From the sequence record OR352937.1: a stretch of 50,922 nt of DNA. One strand, written 5' to 3'. Made by a program: the position numbers and the translations under genes. The DNA comes from Escherichia phage AV106. The notes below the pieces were generated by a model that searched no databases, was not told the DNA's origin, and saw only the letters and a program-made list of their open reading frames with translations. How positions within the stretch are numbered: position 1 is the stretch's first letter; the number at the start of each line of letters is the position of its first letter. This document shows positions 4,087 through 40,427 of the stretch, in pieces.

Positions 4087-6189
4087 ATGGCTTTATATAG
4101 ACGCGGTACAGCATCAATGGATGCAGACGGCACGGTTCGCGGAACCGATACGAAATGGAAAGATCAGCTTGCTTTGATTCGAGTCGGTGCAACTATCGTA
4201 TTCCTAGAGCAACCAATTAAGCTGGCGGTAATCAGCGATATTGTGAGCGACACAGAGTTAAAGGCTATCTCTACGGATGGTCAGACTGCCGCTGACGGTA
4301 AGTATGTAATCTTGCTTAACGATTCATTGACCGTTAACGGGCTTGCTCAAAACGTTGCTGAGACTCTTAGATACTATCAAAGCAAAGAGACTGAGATCGC
4401 TGGGGCAATGGATATCATTGCGAGCCTGGATATGGATAACCTTAACCGTATCGTTGAGGAAATTAAGGCGAACAAATCAGCCGCAGAAGCTGCGCAGAAT
4501 CAAGCGGAGCTTGCTCGCGACGCATCTGCTGCAAACCGTGATGCCGCAAGCCAATTTGCAACATCGGCAGAGCAAAGCAAGGATGCAGCAAAGACCAGTG
4601 AAACGAACGCCAACAGCGCTAAGACCGCCGCCGAAACAGCTAAATCTCAGGCCGTAACCGCTAAAGACCAGGCCAAAGGCTTTCGGGACGAGGCTGAAGG
4701 CTTTGCGAACAGCGCGGACGCCTCGAAAAAAGTGCCGTATGCGGGCGTCACTGTCAGCGCGCCGACTGGCATGGCGGATATGCTTAAGCGGTTACGCGAT
4801 TCTGTTAAAGGCGGTTTTTGGCGCGTTGAGGATATTTCGCAGTTCCCATCTGGCGAAACGACCCCCTTCAAATACGGCTCGGGAGTGTGTGGGGGCGCTG
4901 GGGATACATTCTTTGCCGTCAACGTTGATTGGCGGACTTCTCGCGTTAAAGTTTTCTCAGGAAACAATAACGCGATTAACGGCACGTCAGGCAACGTGAG
5001 CGCTATTGAACTGGCGAAGCTGGGTGCTAACGGTGATGTCGCGATCGGAGACGGCGGGACAGGTGCATCGACAGACTATGGAGCGCGCGCAAACCTTCAG
5101 GTCATGCTAGAAAAACAAGCATCATTGACTACGGAAGATCTTAACAGCCTGAAAGGTGATAAGTCTGGATTTTATTATACTGCCGCGAGCGTCAACGCAA
5201 CGCCGGAGCGTAATTATCCCGTTCAGGACGCAGGTTGTCTACTTGTTCAGCGCACTGGCACTAACGATCCTAGAAGCTGCATACAAACGTACACCTCACA
5301 CAGTACCGGTCGAAAATGGATTCGCTGGCTTAGCAATGGAGCAACCGAAGCATGGTCCAAATGGTACGAGATTTATAACTCGGGGTCGTCGCCGACTTTT
5401 TCCGGAGTGGTCACTGGCTCTGCGGTAACAGCTAAGGGCGACAATGCCGAAGCTAGTGTCCGTGTTATTGCCGATACAGGCGGTAAATATAGTGCTCGTA
5501 TTTCTGTAACGAATAACGCTACAAAGAGAAGTGCTAATTTAGACCTCTCTGATGACGGTACGCTAAGCACCCCCCATATAAATTCCGTCGGGGGTATAGA
5601 CAGCCAGGGCGGGATGCTTTTGCACAAAGTGCCGTACCCGGCAATAGGCTTTCGCCCAAACCGGTATACCTCACCAGACACACAACTTGGTGCATTTACT
5701 AAGTTTGAGGTTTCGGGGCAAGATGGGGAGGTGGCGTATGTATCTCTGTCGCGGCATTACGGTACAGGTGCGGCAGAAGGGGCAATGTATGTTATGTTCC
5801 CCAACACAGGCGGCACGTTGGCTTTGCAGGGGACTTCAGGTATTAATTACAAGAAAAACATTGTTGACGCCAAAGTCAACGAGGCTCTCGATAGAATAAC
5901 GGGACAGCGATTGGTAAACTTTGTATATAAAGACGATGAACAGGAGCGCGTTCGCTTCGGTATTATCGCCGAAGAAGCGGAATTAATAGCGCCGCAGTAC
6001 ATCAAGCACCATCAGACACCTTACGAGGATATTATTGACGAAGATGGAAACAAAATCGGAGAGAAAACACGGGATAGACCATCCGTCGATGTAAACCCAA
6101 TCGTCATGGATTTGATGGGGTGCGTTCAATATCTAAATAAGCAGGTGGAGGAATTGAAAGCTGCCTTAGCGGCACTGAATAAAGCATAA
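4087..6189 (+). CDS. Tail fibre protein with C-terminal intramolecular chaperone (peptidase S74-like) domain
   Basis: 700 aa; RBS AAGGAG; Ala/Gln-rich coiled-coil shaft; C-terminal RVRFGIIAEEAELIAPQYI...LNKQVEELKAALAALNKA resembles the self-cleaving chaperone domain of tail spikes; strong terminator follows. Confidence 0.65.
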   Translation: MALYRRGTASMDADGTVRGTDTKWKDQLALIRVGATIVFLEQPIKLAVISDIVSDTELKAISTDGQTAADGKYVILLNDSLTVNGLAQNVAETLRYYQSKETEIAGAMDIIASLDMDNLNRIVEEIKANKSAAEAAQNQAELARDASAANRDAASQFATSAEQSKDAAKTSETNANSAKTAAETAKSQAVTAKDQAKGFRDEAEGFANSADASKKVPYAGVTVSAPTGMADMLKRLRDSVKGGFWRVEDISQFPSGETTPFKYGSGVCGGAGDTFFAVNVDWRTSRVKVFSGNNNAINGTSGNVSAIELAKLGANGDVAIGDGGTGASTDYGARANLQVMLEKQASLTTEDLNSLKGDKSGFYYTAASVNATPERNYPVQDAGCLLVQRTGTNDPRSCIQTYTSHSTGRKWIRWLSNGATEAWSKWYEIYNSGSSPTFSGVVTGSAVTAKGDNAEASVRVIADTGGKYSARISVTNNATKRSANLDLSDDGTLSTPHINSVGGIDSQGGMLLHKVPYPAIGFRPNRYTSPDTQLGAFTKFEVSGQDGEVAYVSLSRHYGTGAAEGAMYVMFPNTGGTLALQGTSGINYKKNIVDAKVNEALDRITGQRLVNFVYKDDEQERVRFGIIAEEAELIAPQYIKHHQTPYEDIIDEDGNKIGEKTRDRPSVDVNPIVMDLMGCVQYLNKQVEELKAALAALNKA

Positions 6190-6193
6190 CGAG

Positions 6194-6222
6194 AAGGGGC
6201 CGTGCGGCCCCCTTTTTTTTAG
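6194..6222 (+). terminator. Intrinsic terminator after the tail fibre gene
   Basis: GGGGCCG-tgc-GGCCCC followed by TTTTTTTT. Confidence 0.7.
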
Positions 6223-6494
6223 TTTGAGTTTTCCCAGTCCATTTTGCGCCGCGCTAGCGGGCTTTCGTATGACAACAAGCTGTTATCTCATATGAGGATT
6301 ACGCTGAGCTTCAAGGTCCGACACCTGACGGTAAGGAACTTATTGGTAAGCAACGATTCTTCCAGGTTGACTACGCGGCTGTGGCAGCTTACGCAGTGCA
6401 GGTGTGTAAAGAGCAGGAGGAAGAGATTATTTCCTCAAGGAATGACGTTGATGAATTGAAATTGATTGTAAAATCGTTGCTTGATAGCAAGTAA

Positions 6495-7705: not shown

Positions 7706-8770
7706 TTACTTATTTTGATAGCGCACCCATGACGGAGTTTCAAGTTCAATCTCGCTTGCGTCGCCAGCGTATCCAGGCCAAACATCCATTTCAGAGCAAG
7801 CCTTGTAAGTGTGGACTACGCTAATGTACTGGTTACGACCGATCCTGATTTGCTCCATTGTCATACGGTAAGCCAGTGCGATATAAGGCTCTTTTTTCTC
7901 CTGCGCAAGCAATCGAACTACGATCGGAATATCTTCCGGGAAGTTTCCTTCAAAAGCGCCAGCCTGGATTGCGCGACGTAGCAGGTCATGCTGCAATGCC
8001 ATCTTCAGGTAATAGCCGTGATTGTATGCCAGTCTCGGGAACTCTAACGGGTTGGCGCTCATCGTAGTTTTGAAGTCTGTGATAATTAGTGCTTCCGGTA
8101 AAATTACGTCTTCGAATACCGGATCACCATTTTCATCATAACCAGTCAGCACACGACCTGGCACGTTCTCTTTGTAGTCAAGGTGATCGAGTCGAACCTT
8201 AACCTTGACTCCGGATATTTCACCGAAGATTGAGATTTCACGCTGAGCTGTTTCGCTGTTAATGCACGCTTCATGATCGGGATTCTGCTCAAGGATGGCT
8301 CTCATCTTCATGCAAGCATCGTATTTGTCAGCGTCAACCAATTTCTTTCCTTCAGCGCGCGCCTCTGCTTCTGCGATCAGTTCGATCAGATACTGAACGT
8401 TGAGTTCTTCACCGCAATCAATCATCATTTTGATGAGGTCCGGGTATTGCTTTCCGGATGTACCTTTCAGACCAAACGATTTTAATTTTGCAGCCAGTGC
8501 AGTTTGTGACGTAATCAGATCCTTGAACTCTTCCGGAGCCGGACAACGAGCATACGTTGCAGTAAACAGATCACGACTCTCAAAGTTAGTATGCGACTGA
8601 GTGCCAAACTCAAGCGCTTTCGTTGTCTCGTTCTTCTTGAATCGCCAGTTAGCCGGACAAGTCTGATAGATTTCTGCAAGACTCGATCCGCTTACATACT
8701 CTGCCGCCCAACCTTCGTTGCTGTGATACTCGTCATTGGAAAGCTGGCTTGACGTGAATACTTGGAACAT
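7706..8770 (-). CDS. Recombination-associated exonuclease (PD-(D/E)xK family candidate)
   Basis: 354 aa; first gene of the exo-erf-ssb operon; RLDHLDYKEN...ITDFKTT looks like a D...D/ExK motif; RBS AAGGAGA; driven by a sigma70-like promoter. Confidence 0.5.
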   Translation of the reverse strand: MFQVFTSSQLSNDEYHSNEGWAAEYVSGSSLAEIYQTCPANWRFKKNETTKALEFGTQSHTNFESRDLFTATYARCPAPEEFKDLITSQTALAAKLKSFGLKGTSGKQYPDLIKMMIDCGEELNVQYLIELIAEAEARAEGKKLVDADKYDACMKMRAILEQNPDHEACINSETAQREISIFGEISGVKVKVRLDHLDYKENVPGRVLTGYDENGDPVFEDVILPEALIITDFKTTMSANPLEFPRLAYNHGYYLKMALQHDLLRRAIQAGAFEGNFPEDIPIVVRLLAQEKKEPYIALAYRMTMEQIRIGRNQYISVVHTYKACSEMDVWPGYAGDASEIELETPSWVRYQNK

Positions 8771-8801
8771 TGCGTTTATCTCCTTCGTTTACGATGAATC
8801 C

Positions 8802-8829
8802 ATTATAGCCATTAACAGCGTTTAGTCAA
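8802..8829 (-). promoter_or_regulatory. Sigma70-like promoter for the exo-erf-ssb operon
   Basis: Minus strand TTGACT, 16-bp spacer, TATAAT, about 25 nt upstream of the RBS AAGGAGA. Confidence 0.55.
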
Positions 8830-9106
8830 TCGGATACATGTAATTTGTGTGTAATTGCGTGTCTATATCGCTCAAGTTACAACCAGCATTAATAGAATCA
8901 ATTGCTTAAGTCTATTTTTATGCGCTGTCTATCGCGTAACACTTGTAACAGCTTTTTCTTAGAAATACAGAGATACCTACAAATAGAATCAAGATTGATT
9001 AAATTTTGAACATATGTGATAGAAATTTGACGAATCAATCAAATCACCTGTTACACGGTAGACAACTGTTACACAACAATAATTATATATATAAAGCTAA
9101 AATTAA

Positions 9107-9185
9107 ATATTATCTATCTATATATATTATATAGAGTTTTTATCATATCTCTCTGCGGTCGGATGGGGTGGATTTTGTAACACCC
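9107..9185. repeat. AT-rich control module, copy A
   Basis: ATATTATCTATCT, then 52 bp of TA-rich sequence, then ATTTTGTAACACCC; a second copy with identical spacing lies at 40349..40427. Confidence 0.6.
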
Positions 9186-9238
9186 GTTCCGGTTACAAAA
9201 ATAGACACCTGTTACACGAAAAAATTGTAATCGTGCTA

Positions 9239-9267
9239 TTGCAATAAAAGTAAATGCGACATACAAT
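9239..9267 (+). promoter_or_regulatory. Sigma70-like promoter for the Cor-like lipoprotein gene
   Basis: TTGCAA, 17-bp spacer, TACAAT, then RBS GAGGA and ATG at 9297. Confidence 0.55.
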
Positions 9268-9296
9268 GCAATCACACTAACGACGAGGACATACAA

Positions 9297-9527
9297 ATGA
9301 AAAAGTTAATCACCATTATTGCCGCCGCATTCATCCTGACTGGTTGTGCTCAGAATCTTAAGAATGGAGACTGCGTTGCTTACGCTTACGGATCTTGCAT
9401 GATGCGATTCGTTGATGGCAATAAGATTCCGTCTGGCGAGATTGACATGCGATTCAAAGGTCTTTCATCAGACGACAACCAGGGCAACTTTAGCGGTAAG
9501 GTGTCAGTTAAAACTAAGGAGTGGTAA
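9297..9527 (+). CDS. Small outer-membrane lipoprotein, Cor/Llp-like superinfection exclusion candidate
   Basis: 76 aa; lipobox LTGC after a hydrophobic signal peptide; own consensus-like sigma70 promoter; sits beside the tail-tip genes as cor does in FhuA-dependent phages. Confidence 0.5.
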   Translation: MKKLITIIAAAFILTGCAQNLKNGDCVAYAYGSCMMRFVDGNKIPSGEIDMRFKGLSSDDNQGNFSGKVSVKTKEW

Positions 9528-9529
9528 TT

Positions 9530-10486
9530 ATGGGGCAAGGAATATACATAAATCTAAATGACGGTCGTCCAGCAATGGAGATAACCTCGGGACTTCGCGC
9601 CCCGTCATGGTGCGGACCAATACAAGCTGACGGGGTTGATTCATCTGGATCTGTTTTTGATTTTGGTCTGCAAATGAGTCCAGGATCTACCGCTTTTTGC
9701 CTTCCATCTCAGGCTATCTACATAGACGACATGGATTATATCCCGGAGGTGTATTATTTAACCAGCTTTCAGAAGGTTAATGATTCAACAGGGAGAATAA
9801 CGGTAGGTAATTTTAACGGGCACGGTGGAAGGAGGATGAGATTTTATGGCAACTGTTACGAGATCCTCCCCGCTCAGGCTGGTAATCAGGGCATACTCGT
9901 TAACGATTCAACTAACTTCGCGGCGATACCGAATAACGCAAGGTTAATGAGCGCTGCATTTGTTGGAGGTATTCAGGTTAACGGTCAAGCTCAGTTGCCA
10001 GTTCAGGGTGTTCCTTTCGGTATGTGGGATAACCCAAACGTAACACTGGAATCTGACGGGAATACAATATGGTGCAGAGACGCAAACTATAACGGTATTG
10101 ATGACGTTGGCGCGAGCGTATACGTTCAACTCGTAATATTTAATAACACCCCACCACCTCCCGGCCCGGGAATCACTATGAGCAATCCTGCTGGTCAGAT
10201 TGTTTTCTCAAGCGTTCGACGTCCTTTTGTTCTCGGCGGGACTATGGCGATAAATGACGGGTGGCAGTGGTGCGGTGGATTTTTCCCAATACTAAGAACA
10301 GGTACGATATGCAGAGTTACAGGTGGATATAATAACATTCGATACAAGGGAGTGTGTATGAGCGGCGGTAACGTGAGAAGCGCCCCCGGAACAAGAGTAG
10401 GTAATTATTCCACCCAAAGCGGAGCGCGATTCCCATTCAATATAAACATTTCAATGCCAATTCCTTTCACTCCGAACATGTATTAA
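9530..10486 (+). CDS. Hypothetical protein (possible fibre or receptor-associated)
   Basis: Start moved to ATG after RBS AAGGAG; Gly/Asn-rich with PPPPGPG linker and several Cys; bidirectional terminator follows. Confidence 0.4.
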   Translation: MGQGIYINLNDGRPAMEITSGLRAPSWCGPIQADGVDSSGSVFDFGLQMSPGSTAFCLPSQAIYIDDMDYIPEVYYLTSFQKVNDSTGRITVGNFNGHGGRRMRFYGNCYEILPAQAGNQGILVNDSTNFAAIPNNARLMSAAFVGGIQVNGQAQLPVQGVPFGMWDNPNVTLESDGNTIWCRDANYNGIDDVGASVYVQLVIFNNTPPPPGPGITMSNPAGQIVFSSVRRPFVLGGTMAINDGWQWCGGFFPILRTGTICRVTGGYNNIRYKGVCMSGGNVRSAPGTRVGNYSTQSGARFPFNINISMPIPFTPNMY

Positions 10487-10513
10487 AAAAAAGGGGCCAA
10501 TCGGCCCCTTTCT
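10487..10513. terminator. Bidirectional terminator between convergent genes
   Basis: AAAAAAAA-GGGGCC-aatc-GGCCCC-TTT. Confidence 0.65.
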
Positions 10514-10514
10514 G

Positions 10515-13500
10515 TTACCAGACACCAACAACCACTCGGCCCCCGTTAGGTAGGTTAACCGTGATCCCGTTATTGTTTATCTGAACCGTGTTATTGGTTC
10601 CGTTAAATGCGAAGTTGCCGTTATTTGCGTATAGACTACCCCTTACAATTGTGTTATGAAACTCTGAAGTACCTGACTTATTAACACCCCACCCCTGAGA
10701 TCCAGGTACGAAGTTATTTGACTGAATCCATTCCCCAATCATGGCGTTAGTAATAAATCCATCCTTGATGATCGCGCTACTTAGAATAACCTGGCCATTT
10801 TCAACAACGAAGGGGTACTGAGTCTGACCATTCATTCCATTCATGATGGCAAATCGTGATGCCTCAAACAAAATCTGCGCCTTAACCGCAGCTCCGGAAC
10901 CAATCAGAGACATAGCCATTCCTGCACTGTATTCTTGGCCGTTATACTTCAGACCGAGCTTGACGCCGTACATTGCACCAGTCGAATCCGCATTGCTCCA
11001 CGAATCAAGTTTTTGAGAAAGTGCCGCCTCATTATTCCCAAGTCTCGCGCTTAACGACAAGTCAGCTTGAGTTCTCGCCTCAGTCTCGTTTGCTATAGCC
11101 TCTCTAATATCAGTCAAACTTGCCTGGATATCATCACCAATCTCTGCCTTGAGTTGGTCAATTTCACGCGATAGCGCTCCAGTCTCAGTCGCTATAACTT
11201 CACGCAATTCGCTATTGCTTGCGCTAATCTGATCGTCAAAACTTGCCTTCAACTGCTCGATCGACGTCACTCGCGCCTGCGTCTCATCAGCAATAAGTTT
11301 CAGTGATTTCGTGTACTCAGCTTTTCGTTTTCCGTTCTCCTTCTTCATGTAGATCGCGTCTTTATCATTGGCGAGCGCGTTTTCTATTGCTGCCTCTGCG
11401 TTAGCTGCGTTCTGCGCCGCGTTGTCTGTTGCGTTATCAACAAGCCACTCGTAACCAGGCGAGTTTTCGATATCGACAGAAATCTCTCCGATGATATCGT
11501 CAACGTTTGTTGATGCCATACCTCTGACAAAATCAGTCCACTGAGACACGTTACCGATCCTGTCAACCGTCCTTACCCGATACCACACAATATTCCCTCC
11601 AGGCATCGGTGAGTGATAATACTCATGCTGCGGGTACGGAATCAAAGAAAGCAAACTTGCGTTATCCACTGTTCCATCCGGTGACTGTTGCAACTCTGTA
11701 TAGGCCGTATCTCCAGAACCATCAGAGAACCCCCATTTTGTACGGATGCCAAAAACAACATCATCCGTAGCTGTAAGGTTAATAGGTCGTCCCGGCTCAC
11801 CTTGTTTACCCGTCAGCGTCGCAGCTACGATATTTGACCATCCTGAAGTCGTACCTGAGCCAGCTACAGATCGAACGCGAACCTGATAGTTTCCAGCGTA
11901 AATCCCTTCAACGTAAACCTCTTTGTTTGCCGTCTGCGGAACGTTCTGCCAGTTGCCGTTATCCTTTCGCCACTGGACGTCATAGAAAACTGCGTACGGC
12001 ACTTTATCCCAGCTAACAATCATCGTTTCTACGCTCATACCCTGGACGATTCTCGACTCTGAGGACACCTGCACGTTTTCCGGTTTAGGGATCTGATCTG
12101 GCTCAACGATGCTCGTCGGTCGGTCGTCGATGTTAACTCCGTAATCAATCTCATCGTACTTGTTAGGATCGTACTCAACCGCCGTAATCTTGTAGGTAAA
12201 CTCTTCATCATCATCACCCTTGTCGATTTTGGTCACGACGTACTGCTGCAACGCAATGTCGGTACGGTCGATTGCGAATACCGTGTTAGGCTTCACAGGA
12301 AAGCCAAAGCCGATGTTAACCTCTATAGTCTTACCATCCGCACTAACACTTGAGATTGTGCGCTTCACGGGCTTACCATCGGGCTTATTTACGATAATAA
12401 AGTCACCTGCGCGAGCATCAACGCGGAACGGCAGGAAAATCTGACTACCGGATACTTCGAGCAAACGCCCTGACAGGTTCATCGTCAAGTTACTTGACCA
12501 GAAGTTATCAGCTATTGCTACAACATCTCCGATTGTCGGGATCATGCCCTCAAGTCCGGTAGCGAAGTTTACCGTAGTGCTGCGGAGGTTAGTTTTCAGA
12601 ATCCACCTCCCGCGTCGGTTGGCCTCGCTTCGACGTGTGCAACCGATCGCTGTAATACTCGTTACGTTGTTCCCAAAACGTAGAGTAGCCTCACGATCGA
12701 ATACTGGCTCAACGTCCTGCTGATACATGTTTTGTTCATCATCAAACATCACATTACACGTCGTGTACATGCTCTTTTCGCTTGCGAACGTGTAGGAGAA
12801 GTCACCATTAACCACGTTGTCGTTAGTGAAGATGTACGCAGGCTCACGCGGCCTGTCGATGATTACCGAAATGCTTTCGCCATTCCAAAAGCTCATACCT
12901 CGAAAGATTGAGCAAATATCTCGAATAACCTTGTAAGCGTCAGTCTGAGACTGGATTATCACATCGCAAAGGTAGCGAGGTTCCGTCCCGCCCTTCCCAT
13001 CAGGAACCATCTGATCGCAATATTGCGCAGCCTCGTAGAGCGCCCATTTATCGACAGCGATACCAAGCTCTTTCTGATCCAGGCCGTAACGCTGATTAAT
13101 CATCAGGTCATAAAGAACCCACGCCGGATTATTCGTCCATGCTTTTTTGAAAGTGCCATCCCAATTGCCGTTGTATGTTCGAGATTCTGGATCGTAGTTC
13201 GACGGAACGTTTACAATCTTCCAGCGCTTACGAATTGAAATCGTAGGTAACTGGTTGGGGAACATCTTCGAATCGAACTCTACGAAAAGAAGACCAGTCA
13301 GAGGATAACGGAATTTGGCATCAATCACCTCGGCATAGCTTTTCACCTGAATTGCATCAACGACATTCGAATCACTGGAGTCGGGAGTCTTTCGAACAAC
13401 TCTTAATATTACCTGATTGTTGAAGTTAGGAAGGTTTACGCGACGGCTTCGATCATAACCTGACATTGTTTTGCCTTCGATTACGTCAGTAAGAACAGTC

Positions 13501-13967
13501 TCAAACGAACCGCCATCAACCGCTTGCTGCACCTCGTACTCAACTCGAACGCCGTTTTTATCGCCGTTACTTTCAATTCGTACGCCGCGAGGCATGAACA
13601 TTTTGATGCGTATTGCCGATAGTGTTTTATTGGTTACTGAGATCGTGTATGGGTTATCGGTAGTAACCTCACGATTTACAGTTACCTCACTGGAGCTATC
13701 TTCCATGCCCTTGATGTATTCCTGCGTCTGAGTTCCCGGCCTGAACTCAGCCTTTACCCCTTCGAAGTTGAACGATCCATCCTCGTTTTGCACCGGAACT
13801 GAGTTAAACATCAACTGCTTTAGGCTGAATGTTTCGTCAATTTCACCATCAGATACAGCTAACAGGATTTTGATTTTGTTGATTGAGATTAGATTGTCTT
13901 CCATCTCAACTGGGTTATGAGGCTTCTGTGACCCACCCTTAGATCCACTTATCACTTTTTGAATCAT
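10515..13967 (-). CDS. Tail tip / host-specificity protein (lambda J-like)
   Basis: 1150 aa; last gene of the tail module after I/K/L/M-like genes; fibronectin-III-like central region; size and position match lambda gpJ. Confidence 0.8.
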   Translation of the reverse strand: MIQKVISGSKGGSQKPHNPVEMEDNLISINKIKILLAVSDGEIDETFSLKQLMFNSVPVQNEDGSFNFEGVKAEFRPGTQTQEYIKGMEDSSSEVTVNREVTTDNPYTISVTNKTLSAIRIKMFMPRGVRIESNGDKNGVRVEYEVQQAVDGGSFETVLTDVIEGKTMSGYDRSRRVNLPNFNNQVILRVVRKTPDSSDSNVVDAIQVKSYAEVIDAKFRYPLTGLLFVEFDSKMFPNQLPTISIRKRWKIVNVPSNYDPESRTYNGNWDGTFKKAWTNNPAWVLYDLMINQRYGLDQKELGIAVDKWALYEAAQYCDQMVPDGKGGTEPRYLCDVIIQSQTDAYKVIRDICSIFRGMSFWNGESISVIIDRPREPAYIFTNDNVVNGDFSYTFASEKSMYTTCNVMFDDEQNMYQQDVEPVFDREATLRFGNNVTSITAIGCTRRSEANRRGRWILKTNLRSTTVNFATGLEGMIPTIGDVVAIADNFWSSNLTMNLSGRLLEVSGSQIFLPFRVDARAGDFIIVNKPDGKPVKRTISSVSADGKTIEVNIGFGFPVKPNTVFAIDRTDIALQQYVVTKIDKGDDDEEFTYKITAVEYDPNKYDEIDYGVNIDDRPTSIVEPDQIPKPENVQVSSESRIVQGMSVETMIVSWDKVPYAVFYDVQWRKDNGNWQNVPQTANKEVYVEGIYAGNYQVRVRSVAGSGTTSGWSNIVAATLTGKQGEPGRPINLTATDDVVFGIRTKWGFSDGSGDTAYTELQQSPDGTVDNASLLSLIPYPQHEYYHSPMPGGNIVWYRVRTVDRIGNVSQWTDFVRGMASTNVDDIIGEISVDIENSPGYEWLVDNATDNAAQNAANAEAAIENALANDKDAIYMKKENGKRKAEYTKSLKLIADETQARVTSIEQLKASFDDQISASNSELREVIATETGALSREIDQLKAEIGDDIQASLTDIREAIANETEARTQADLSLSARLGNNEAALSQKLDSWSNADSTGAMYGVKLGLKYNGQEYSAGMAMSLIGSGAAVKAQILFEASRFAIMNGMNGQTQYPFVVENGQVILSSAIIKDGFITNAMIGEWIQSNNFVPGSQGWGVNKSGTSEFHNTIVRGSLYANNGNFAFNGTNNTVQINNNGITVNLPNGGRVVVGVW

Positions 13968-40141: not shown

Positions 40142-40348
40142 ATGTCTATAGCTGCATTTTTTATTTTTGTAACCAGTGCAACCGATGCAACCGACTTTTT
40201 CTATAAAAGTAAGCACATCTATTTATGCGCGCGGAATAGTATGTTTTTTATACTATGCATCACGAAATATATGCCACCATCAAAAAATGCGGTTGCACCT
40301 ATTACGCCGATTACATACCAATATATAATATAATAAATAAATAAATAT

Positions 40349-40427
40349 ATATTATCTATCTTATTATTATATATAGATATTTTATTATATATAGGCCCAT
40401 CGACTCGCTGGCCATTTTGTAACACCC
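40349..40427. repeat. AT-rich control module, copy B
   Basis: Same two anchor sequences (13 bp and 14 bp identical) with the same 52-bp spacing as copy A. Confidence 0.6.

Follow-up and report, generated by a model that had tools for sequence, protein, structure and literature searches.

Gene content of the locus

The locus described here lies in Escherichia phage AV106 (sequence record OR352937.1), in a stretch of 50,922 nucleotides that was analyzed as a whole and is hereafter called the window. AV106 is a T1-like phage (Tunavirus) with 92-95% nucleotide identity to the Shigella and Escherichia phages SH6, pSf-2, Shfl1, and SA32RD. Two open reading frames, encoding a small lipoprotein and a 318-amino-acid protein, form a module transcribed toward the end of the J (tail-tip) gene of this T1-like siphovirus. 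Both are genuine genes, with Pfam matches of the lipoprotein to PF24052 (1.4e-24) and of the 318-residue protein to PF20051 (1.2e-126). Gene structure and synteny were observed directly, and the features are as follows.

8771-9296, between divergent genes: AT-rich control region (GC about 30%) separating a recE-like operon (minus strand) from the lipoprotein-RBP operon (plus strand)
9239-9267, plus strand: candidate sigma-70 promoter of the lipoprotein-RBP operon, TTGCAA-17-TACAAT, matching 9 of 12 consensus positions
9297-9527, plus strand: predicted superinfection-exclusion lipoprotein precursor of the Rtp45 family (PF24052, phrog_4281, 9rps_D)
9297-9344, plus strand: lipoprotein signal peptide, codons 1-16, with lipobox LTGC; residues 1-17 are those of T1 Cor
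9515-9520, plus strand: Shine-Dalgarno sequence AAGGAG of the RBP gene, within the 3' end of the lipoprotein gene and 9 nt upstream of the ATG at 9530
9530-10486, plus strand: receptor-binding protein (RBP), DUF6453, predicted LptD binder (PF20051, 9rpt_C, AlphaFold2 model)
10490-10511, both strands: bidirectional intrinsic terminator common to the RBP operon and the convergent J gene, a hairpin flanked by an A-run and a T-run
10515-13967, minus strand: J-like central tail-fiber/tail-tip protein of 1150 amino acids, convergent with the RBP gene (PF09327, PF24801, PF13550, phrog_31)
10518-10711, minus strand: C-terminal ~65 codons of J, part of the swapped module; T1 homology resumes only at 10712

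The same order of lipoprotein gene and RBP gene, convergent with J across a terminator, was found in Rtp, JeanPiccard, Oekolampad, mEp021, and 17 IMG/VR loci. An original prediction for this locus had described both open reading frames as they are found here, but erred in the length of the second protein (319 amino acids were claimed, a count of codons that includes the stop) and in calling the promoter strong. Several of its details were borne out by the sequence: the 76-residue lipoprotein precursor with lipobox LTGC at 9297-9527, the 2-nt gap between the genes ("tt" between the TAA at 9525-9527 and the ATG at 9530), the PPPPGPG linker (9530-10486 contains NNTPPPPGPGITM), and the Gly/Asn-rich composition of the second protein (13.2% G plus 8.8% N, 22%, versus 15.4% in J).

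Transcription and translation signals

The promoter at 9239-9267 had been described as near-consensus. This description is unsupported because 9/12 matches are no more common than expected by chance in the AT-rich spacer; seven were observed within 8600-10800, versus 5.6 +/- 1.8 in shuffled sequences. Both hexamers are unchanged in T1 and SA32RD, the latter having one spacer difference. Two further 9/12 candidates lie upstream on the plus strand (9202-9231 and 9059-9086), and the promoter annotated in SA32RD corresponds to about 9202-9231. Only one spacer site reaches 11/12; it lies on the minus strand (8829-8802) and serves the recE-like operon. Some promoter must still sit within the 526-bp divergent spacer, and co-transcription of the two genes from a host-type promoter there is predicted from homologues. 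The control region, which contains a cluster of GTTACA motifs, shares 92-95% identity with the cor-recE spacer of T1.

At the other end of the module, the terminator hairpin GGGGCC-AATC-GGCCCC (stem 10493-10498/10503-10508) was folded manually, with energies on the plus and minus strands of -16.6 and -18.9 kcal/mol, respectively. An automated terminator scan found none, although the hairpin is clear on manual folding, and the SA32RD annotation has a terminator on both strands. An Rfam scan of the whole window returned no family at the gathering score. For translation, the sequence GAGGA lies 7 nt upstream of the lipoprotein ATG. A GTG at 9521 was considered as the RBP start and rejected in favor of the ATG at 9530, since homologues start with M-x-x-G-I and AAGGAG is positioned 9 nt upstream.

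The 318-residue receptor-binding protein

Family membership and predicted fold of the 318-residue protein were observed directly. It scored 422 bits against PF20051 and matched PDB 9rpt_C, the Oekolampad RBP bound to LptDE, over its full length (residues 1-318, 45% identity, E 1.8e-66). The AlphaFold2 model (pLDDT 84.5, pTM 0.83) is all-beta, with no helices or hydrophobic spans. A Foldseek search of the PDB with this model returned 9rpt_C (E 1e-20, target-normalized TM 0.91, rmsd 2.8 A) and, besides it, nothing below E 0.9. Besides that of Oekolampad, its homologues include the RBPs of SH6 (99.1% identity), OzMSK (68.1%), and Rtp (Rtp44, 40%). The earlier suggestion of a fiber-associated protein is supported by this homology to an LptDE-bound RBP; the alternative suggestion of a co-exclusion component is not, the protein being the RBP itself.

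Selection on the RBP is very strongly purifying, with for example 74 synonymous versus one non-synonymous codon change, and such constraint matches expectation for the ligand of an essential, constrained receptor. Conservation is highest in the first 30 residues, where pLDDT is low for the protein modeled alone, and across the DUF6453 family it is lowest in the tip loops that contact the receptor.

The predicted exclusion lipoprotein

The precursor begins MKKLITIIAAAFILTGC... and comprises 76 amino acids, of which 60 (6.6 kDa) form the mature protein. Its lipobox L-T-G-C, with the Cys17 codon at 9345-9347, predicts lipidation at Cys17; Ala-Gln follows, and Ala rather than Asp at position +2 suggests sorting to the outer membrane. 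The score against PF24052 (Phage_lipoprotein) was 86.3 bits (cutoff 27), within the range of Rtp45 (128), Lpp021 of mEp021 (107), and the Oekolampad exclusion protein (76). A match to phrog_4281 (2e-35) and one to PDB 9rps_D, Rtp45 itself (E 2.9e-8, at a modest 32% identity), were also obtained. Cys26 and Cys34 align with the Rtp45 disulfide Cys30-Cys38, with the same spacing of 8, and the C-terminal KEW agrees with the K/R-E-W end that is a conserved feature of the family. The method of search affected the number of relatives found: a word-indexed search gave only 12 close ones, and tblastn against phage genomes gave 267 records.

The cryo-EM structure of Rtp45 on the periplasmic face of LptDE accounts for superinfection exclusion (PMC12685063), and the same paper reports that structure prediction does not succeed for lipoproteins of this type and is wrong for Rtp45. 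Lpp021 was measured to exclude its own phages (PMC11893012). Thus the exclusion function originally proposed is supported as a class by a family with a solved mechanism (Rtp45) and a phenotype (Lpp021). By homology to Rtp45, the AV106 lipoprotein is predicted to bind the periplasmic face of LptDE and to exclude the cognate phage.

A cassette swapped relative to T1

Relative to T1, the DNA from the lipobox Cys codon (9346) to a point about 65 codons inside J (10712) has been swapped. These mosaic boundaries were observed directly. At the DNA level, homology to T1 stops at 9346, the position reached by every Tunavirus match to 8950-9346. Because the cassette starts at the lipobox Cys codon, T1 Cor and the lipoprotein share their promoter region and an identical signal peptide. 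The J-like protein is 93% identical to T1 J over residues 1-1132; its last ~40 residues match J of Rtp, JeanPiccard, Oekolampad, FritzHoffmann, and mEp021 but not that of T1. This J C-terminus travels together with the RBP. The motif adjoins the RBP gene in 79 of 79 informative DUF6453 loci, and among Tunavirus J relatives it occurs in all eight loci with the RBP and in none of seven with Cor. Judged from the sequence, the last ~40 residues of J are likely the segment on which the RBP docks.

These observations slightly favor the view that the exchangeable unit of receptor specificity in T1-like phages extends beyond the RBP locus to a three-part cassette, in which a docking adaptor formed by the last ~40-65 residues of J is joined by the RBP and the mature exclusion lipoprotein. 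The recombination joints may lie inside two coding sequences, one of them at the lipobox Cys codon. If so, a fixed promoter and signal peptide would serve any exclusion protein swapped in, and a single transfer of 9347-10711 into T1 would change its receptor from FhuA to LptD together with its exclusion specificity. The cassette boundaries with respect to T1 and the co-movement of the J C-terminus with the RBP are what the present analysis adds.

Alternative interpretations

The original prediction had called the lipoprotein Cor-like; on this reading a Cor/Llp-type protein would inactivate FhuA or a similar TonB-dependent receptor, and the downstream protein would have an accessory or co-exclusion role. 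The resemblance arises because the gene occupies the slot and orientation of T1 cor, with the T1 upstream region and an identical 17-residue signal peptide; the size also agrees, and there is a weak match to the PHROG Cor family (phrog_1119, 1.7e-6). That match, however, spans residues 1-33 only, essentially the signal peptide, and Cor membership was rejected; BLASTP against T1 Cor gave 26 identities, of which 17 are in the signal peptide. The NCBIfam Cor model NF047972 recovered T1 Cor as a positive control (55.8 bits, cutoff 31) but did not match the lipoprotein at E <= 0.01, and T1 Cor scored 17.7 bits against PF24052, under the cutoff. Similarity to T1 runs out at the lipobox Cys codon, and the mature protein shows no Cor features but has the Cys pair of Rtp45 and a C-terminal KEW. 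The locus has no FhuA-type cassette (cor and two membrane-protein genes following J), DUF6453 taking its place, and Cor and DUF6453 are mutually exclusive in Tunavirus loci (seven with Cor, eight with the RBP, none with both). The downstream protein, in turn, has a homologue, itself an RBP, whose solved structure places it on the extracellular side of LptDE. A Cor/Llp-type protein is therefore highly improbable here, the family being PF24052 instead. It is just as hard to credit that the 318-residue protein is a host-takeover "membrane protein" or moron with no role in the virion. RefSeq records do name it "membrane protein", and phrog_1265 carries that label in the moron category, but the label was rejected because the model is all-beta and a homologue is a soluble RBP, purified as such and binding LptDE from outside. 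The mEp021 homologue is annotated "virion structural protein", and the gene always adjoins J, following it directly on the same strand in prophage-type loci.

A more serious question is whether the same module uses another outer-membrane receptor, such as OmpA or another porin, which the lipoprotein would then mask in place of LptD. The tip loops of the family are variable, identity to the structurally characterized RBP is only 45%, and for mEp021 and mEp515, which encode members of both families (DUF6453 and PF24052), a strong but incomplete dependence on OmpA was reported. Insofar as these phages are OmpA-dependent, the receptor may not be determined by DUF6453/PF24052 membership alone, or an earlier step may involve OmpA; lptD, being essential, was beyond the reach of the mEp021 study. 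On the other side, phages with the module were LptD-dependent in every reported LptD test, across 33-40% pairwise identity. Resistance to seven BASEL phages from four groups arose by host mutations in lptD (PMC8594841), and an LptD loop deletion confers resistance to OzMSK (PMC13035648), the closest validated relative at 68% identity. The SH6 RBP appears as a predicted LptD binder in a published listing, and Rtp44 is 96% identical to the RBP of the LptD-validated AugustePiccard. The AV106 RBP falls inside the validated sequence range, since Rtp-type (Rtp44) and Oekolampad RBPs share only 33% identity. A receptor other than LptD is thus unlikely, and LptD is, by analogy with these homologues, the most likely receptor. 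FhuA, the example receptor named originally, does not apply. The functional class first proposed for this locus has held, whereas the Cor family, FhuA as receptor, and the co-exclusion role have not.

Predicted function and significance

Very probably, the two genes form a host-recognition module consisting of an LptD-binding RBP and an Rtp45-family exclusion lipoprotein. The RBP would be the terminal receptor-binding protein, with two beta-sandwich domains linked by PPPPGPG. We infer that its conserved N-terminal base docks non-covalently on the last ~40 residues of J, by analogy with homologues, and that its variable tip loops would enter the extracellular mouth of the LPS translocon LptD/LptE; insertion there would lead to irreversible adsorption and DNA ejection. 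The lipoprotein would be exported, cleaved, and lipidated at Cys17, and its final location would be the inner leaflet of the outer membrane. As predicted from Rtp45, it would bind the periplasmic side of LptDE and push a hairpin up the LptD lumen, which would displace extracellular loop 4. With this loop displaced, neither incoming phages nor progeny that encounter cell debris could bind through their RBP.

Modules of this type have already been described in phages, and the finding is real but ordinary. Current understanding is unchanged because the module type, receptor, and exclusion mechanism were published between 2021 and 2025. The analysis does correct the labels "membrane protein", "hypothetical protein", and "Cor-like" that databases attach to the locus. 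The predicted terminal receptor, LptD, is an essential and conserved protein, and the prediction bears on host range, on lysis of fhuA (T1-resistant) laboratory strains, and on ideas for phage steering. The cassette boundaries and the co-varying J C-terminus provide a practical recipe for retargeting T1-like phages.

Comparison with known systems

Essentially the same locus is present in the Tunavirus phages SH6, Shfl1, pSf-2, Sfin-1, and SA32RD, with 93-95% identity at the nucleotide level, 99.1-99.7% for the RBP, and about 92% for the lipoprotein; only point differences were seen, and those in the RBP gene are almost all synonymous. The nearest characterized systems are the rtp44/rtp45 locus of Rtp and its equivalents in AugustePiccard, JeanPiccard, and Oekolampad, described as an LptD-type "bona fide RBP locus" (Maffei 2021; Dunbar 2025, PDB 9RPT/9RPS). 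These loci and that of AV106 share PF24052 and DUF6453, the lipoprotein-then-RBP order convergent with J across a terminator, the J C-terminal motif, the lipoprotein Cys pair, and the RBP fold. They differ in sequence, with the RBP 40% identical to Rtp44 and 45% to that of Oekolampad; for the lipoprotein, identity is 32% with Rtp45 and about 65-67% with Oekolampad-type counterparts. The AV106 backbone is that of a Tunavirus, whereas theirs is Rtpvirus or Dhillonvirus, and AV106 has the signal peptide and promoter region of T1 cor.

Cor of T1, phi80, and N15 is likewise a small outer-membrane lipoprotein with a role in superinfection exclusion, a role that is predicted for AV106. The slot, orientation, upstream region, and 17-residue signal peptide are identical to those of T1 cor, but the mature sequence is unrelated and the predicted target is LptDE rather than FhuA. 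In T1, cor is a lone gene facing two membrane-protein genes close to J, whereas the AV106 lipoprotein gene is probably co-transcribed with that of the RBP. The Llp/pb5 pair of T5, which targets FhuA, provides a further parallel in that the gene for a dedicated RBP, located at the central fiber tip, adjoins that for a cognate lipoprotein of the periplasmic face; no sequence or fold relationship to it was found. Llp exerts a long-range allosteric effect on a TonB-dependent transporter, whereas proteins of the Rtp45 type physically displace loop 4 of LptD through the lumen.

Locus organization

The window is the genome of a T1-like siphovirus (Drexlerviridae, Tunavirus). Two adjacent plus-strand ORFs are predicted, with high confidence, to encode a receptor-binding protein (RBP) and its cognate exclusion lipoprotein. 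The features of the region are as follows.

7706-8770, minus strand: recE-like exonuclease gene; an Erf-like gene also lies on this strand
8771-9296: AT-rich spacer of 526 bp between the recE-like gene and the lipoprotein ORF
9297-9527, plus strand: lipoprotein ORF, 76 aa, start MKKLITIIAAAFILTGC, canonical lipobox
9530-10486, plus strand: RBP ORF, 318 aa, ATG at 9530, two bases past the lipoprotein TAA
10515-13967, minus strand: J-like tail-tip gene, 1150 aa, convergent with the two preceding ORFs

Good Shine-Dalgarno sequences precede both the lipoprotein and RBP ORFs. The second protein, which is 318 and not 319 aa long as originally counted, includes NNTPPPPGPGITM, and Gly and Asn together make up 22% of its residues. 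Escherichia phage SA32RD and Shigella phages SH6, Shfl1, pSf-2 and Sfin-1 are 93-95% identical to the window at 9100-10600 and about 92-93% identical over its first 25 kb, and T1 can be aligned over most of the window at 80-93%.

The 318-aa protein and its predicted receptor

The 318-aa protein is a full-length member of the RBP family DUF6453 (Pfam; 1.2e-126). Its sole match in a sequence search of the PDB was chain C of 9RPT, 9RPW and 9RQI (E 1.8e-66, residues 1-318 against 1-321), the RBP of phage Oekolampad, which cryo-EM shows lodged in the lipopolysaccharide translocon LptDE from its extracellular side (PMC12685063). An AlphaFold2 model built from 36 homologues was all-beta (pLDDT 84.5, pTM 0.83), and the one significant structural match to it was 9rpt_C (E 1e-20, target-normalised TM 0.91). 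Identity was 40% to Rtp44, the RBP of phage Rtp, 38-40% to the proteins of JeanPiccard, TheodorHerzl and FritzHoffmann, 68% to the annotated OzMSK RBP and 99.1% to the SH6 RBP. Maffei et al. tied this 'bona fide RBP locus' to LptD through sequenced resistant mutants for seven phages from Drexlerviridae, Dhillonvirus, Nonagvirus and Seuratvirus (PMC8594841). Black et al. found that an engineered LptD loop deletion conferred OzMSK resistance, and listed SH6 (Tunavirinae) among predicted LptD-dependent phages (PMC13035648). Identity among validated LptD-targeting RBPs goes down to 33%, which puts the window protein well within the validated range. Judged from these homologues, LptD is the likely receptor of this phage, with the caveat that variability in the DUF6453 family falls in the loops that contact the receptor. 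Compared with five close relatives, the RBP gene carries 34-74 synonymous and only 1-3 non-synonymous codon differences, a very tight constraint that is in keeping with an essential, conserved receptor.

The predicted exclusion lipoprotein and exchange of cassettes

The lipoprotein matches Pfam PF24052 (86 bits, cutoff 27) and phrog_4281. The Pfam family also takes in Rtp45 (the exclusion lipoprotein of Rtp), the Oekolampad exclusion protein bas18_0026 and mEp021 gp81 (Lpp021). Its sole PDB relative is Rtp45 itself (9RPS chain D, E 2.9e-8), and the nearest subtype is that of Oekolampad and Dhillonvirus (about 65-67% identity). The family signature can be traced in the alignment: a Cys pair spaced by eight residues and disulfide-bonded in the Rtp45 structure (Cys26/Cys34 in the window, Cys30/Cys38 in Rtp45), the segment G-x-x-[VI]-P-[SA]-G-[ED], and [KR]-E-W at the C-terminus. 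As published, the structure has Rtp45 between LptE and LptM on the periplasmic face of LptDE, from where it sends a hairpin up the LptD lumen, shifting extracellular loop 4 by up to 20 Å and blocking RBP binding (PMC12685063). Plasmid-expressed Lpp021 excludes mEp021 and mEp515 (PMC11893012). In the 76-codon lipoprotein gene, 13-19 synonymous and 6-9 non-synonymous differences separate the window from the five close relatives.

The original prediction had called this lipoprotein Cor-like, and that identity was rejected. The NCBIfam Cor model NF047972 gave 55.8 bits for T1 Cor and no match for the window lipoprotein; the PHROG Cor match covered residues 1-33 only; and BLASTP against T1 Cor placed 17/26 identities within the signal peptide. 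The signal peptides are alike because the window and T1 share slot, upstream region and first 17 codons. T1 cor occupies exactly the same slot and orientation, the 526-bp upstream spacer is about 92-95% identical, and there is an exact match in the hexamers and spacer of the proposed promoter, in the Shine-Dalgarno sequence and over the first 17 codons. DNA homology to T1 breaks off within the lipobox Cys codon (9346) and returns at 10712, leaving roughly the last 65 codons of J outside it. A second segment non-homologous to T1, at 4528-6480, corresponds to the distal part of the lateral tail-fibre gene, known as the hypervariable host-range locus. A search with 8950-9346 retrieved 63 Tunavirus records, some with Cor and some with the window-type lipoprotein, and the matches reached 9346. 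The limits of homology and this mixed pattern therefore indicate two alternative cassettes exchanged by recombination within coding sequence: one, Cor plus two membrane-protein genes, is associated with FhuA use (PMC13164509), and the other is an Rtp45-like lipoprotein plus DUF6453. The common promoter region and signal peptide stay in place with either cassette.

The J C-terminus as part of the module

Over residues 1-1132 window J shares 93% identity with its T1 counterpart, but its last 40 or so residues (YANNGNFAFNGTNNTVQINNNGITVNLPNGGRVVVGVW) are unlike T1. This tail is nearly identical to that of Rtp J, although the whole proteins are only 60% identical, and is also present in JeanPiccard, Oekolampad, FritzHoffmann and mEp021. 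An HMM of the tail was positive in the adjacent J gene at 79 of 80 IMG/VR loci retrieved with the RBP alignment, the single exception being cut by a contig end. Among close relatives of window J, the tail was positive in all eight DUF6453 loci (seven at 104-112 bits), and no match was found in any of seven Cor loci even at E <= 10. Conservation in the RBP is highest over the N-terminal 30 or so residues, which are modelled poorly on their own; Black et al. place invariant RBP residues at the base (PMC13035648). The J C-terminus belongs to the module, and from the co-occurrence and the conserved base together we infer that the base of the RBP docks non-covalently on this tail. The eighth DUF6453 locus, the IMG/VR copy of Shigella phage vB_SsoS_008 (L103), has a weak tail motif (26 bits) and an RBP gene seemingly split into three ORF fragments, which may reflect sequencing error or decay of the module.

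Regulatory sequences

A strong near-consensus promoter had been proposed, but TTGCAA-17-TACAAT (9239-9267) agrees with consensus at only 9/12 positions. Matches of this quality are not enriched in the region (7 observed against 5.6 +/- 1.8 in shuffled sequence). Two further 9/12 candidates lie upstream, and the SA32RD annotation places a promoter at the equivalent of one of them (about 9202-9231). The spacer 8771-9296 must hold some promoter, for which 9239-9267 is one candidate. A GC-rich hairpin with flanking A-run and T-run at 10490-10511 is a bidirectional terminator serving the lipoprotein-RBP operon and J.

Within the spacer, 8876-9216 holds 7 of the 30 window copies of GTTACA in 341 bp, and all three TGTTACAC octamers. 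Two repeats lie in the spacer as well: the 21-nt TAGACAnCTGTTACAC recurs in direct orientation (9059-9079 and 9202-9222), and TTTTGTAAC-N10-GTTACAAAA (9173-9200) forms a perfect inverted repeat. The GTTACA-cluster region is kept in T1 and may be an operator/iteron array governing the divergent recE and lipoprotein-RBP operons, or a replication origin. An 80-nt AT-only element occurs twice at 71% identity (9069-9148 and 40311-40390), both times in a divergent intergenic region and followed by ATTTTGTAACACCC, with GTCTAT...GTAAC motifs close by. The second copy lies about 200 bp ahead of 40594/40595, the point from which the window is again homologous to the T1 record ends; the stretch in between had no match in the window-T1 alignment. 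The inverted repeat TAGCA-N5-TGCTA occurs 22 times in the window (up to one mismatch; 1.5 expected), for example at 2509, 4051, 33981, 34501, 36136, 40476, 40681 and 41911. Copies are mostly intergenic, often with a hairpin just before (a 55-nt repeat family), and the same window-wide search placed none in the spacer upstream of the lipoprotein gene. The Rtp genome paper reportedly describes about 10 conserved inverted repeats as sites of a phage transcriptional regulator, Rtp52, the homologue of T1 gp23.

Comparison with known systems

Other arrangements of the family exist. On IMG/VR contigs of prophage type (L024-L087; for example L041, 2486-4601; RBP 45-47% identical) the gene for the DUF6453 protein comes straight after J and on its strand, with a tail-fibre gene after it (a 387-aa tail-fibre-like gene, then an integrase), and no PF24052 lipoprotein was found within 2.5 kb of the DUF6453 gene. 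An adjacent lipoprotein is likewise absent in FritzHoffmann. Phage mEp021 (L005, 1762-2915) has both the PF24052 lipoprotein and the DUF6453 protein, as does mEp515. The two were published as strongly but incompletely OmpA-dependent, with J the presumed RBP of mEp021, in work where LptD could not be probed by knockout. The explanation is either that OmpA has a role at a different step or that the receptor has shifted in some members of the family, and given the LptD findings the terminal receptor of mEp021 may need re-examination.

This locus represents the already known rtp44/rtp45-type LptD module in its Tunavirus form. GenBank already contains near-identical copies, among them that of SH6, for which LptD binding has been predicted in print. 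The present analysis adds the precise positions of the mosaic joints, the sharing of a promoter region and signal peptide with cor, and a quantitative link between J tail and RBP.
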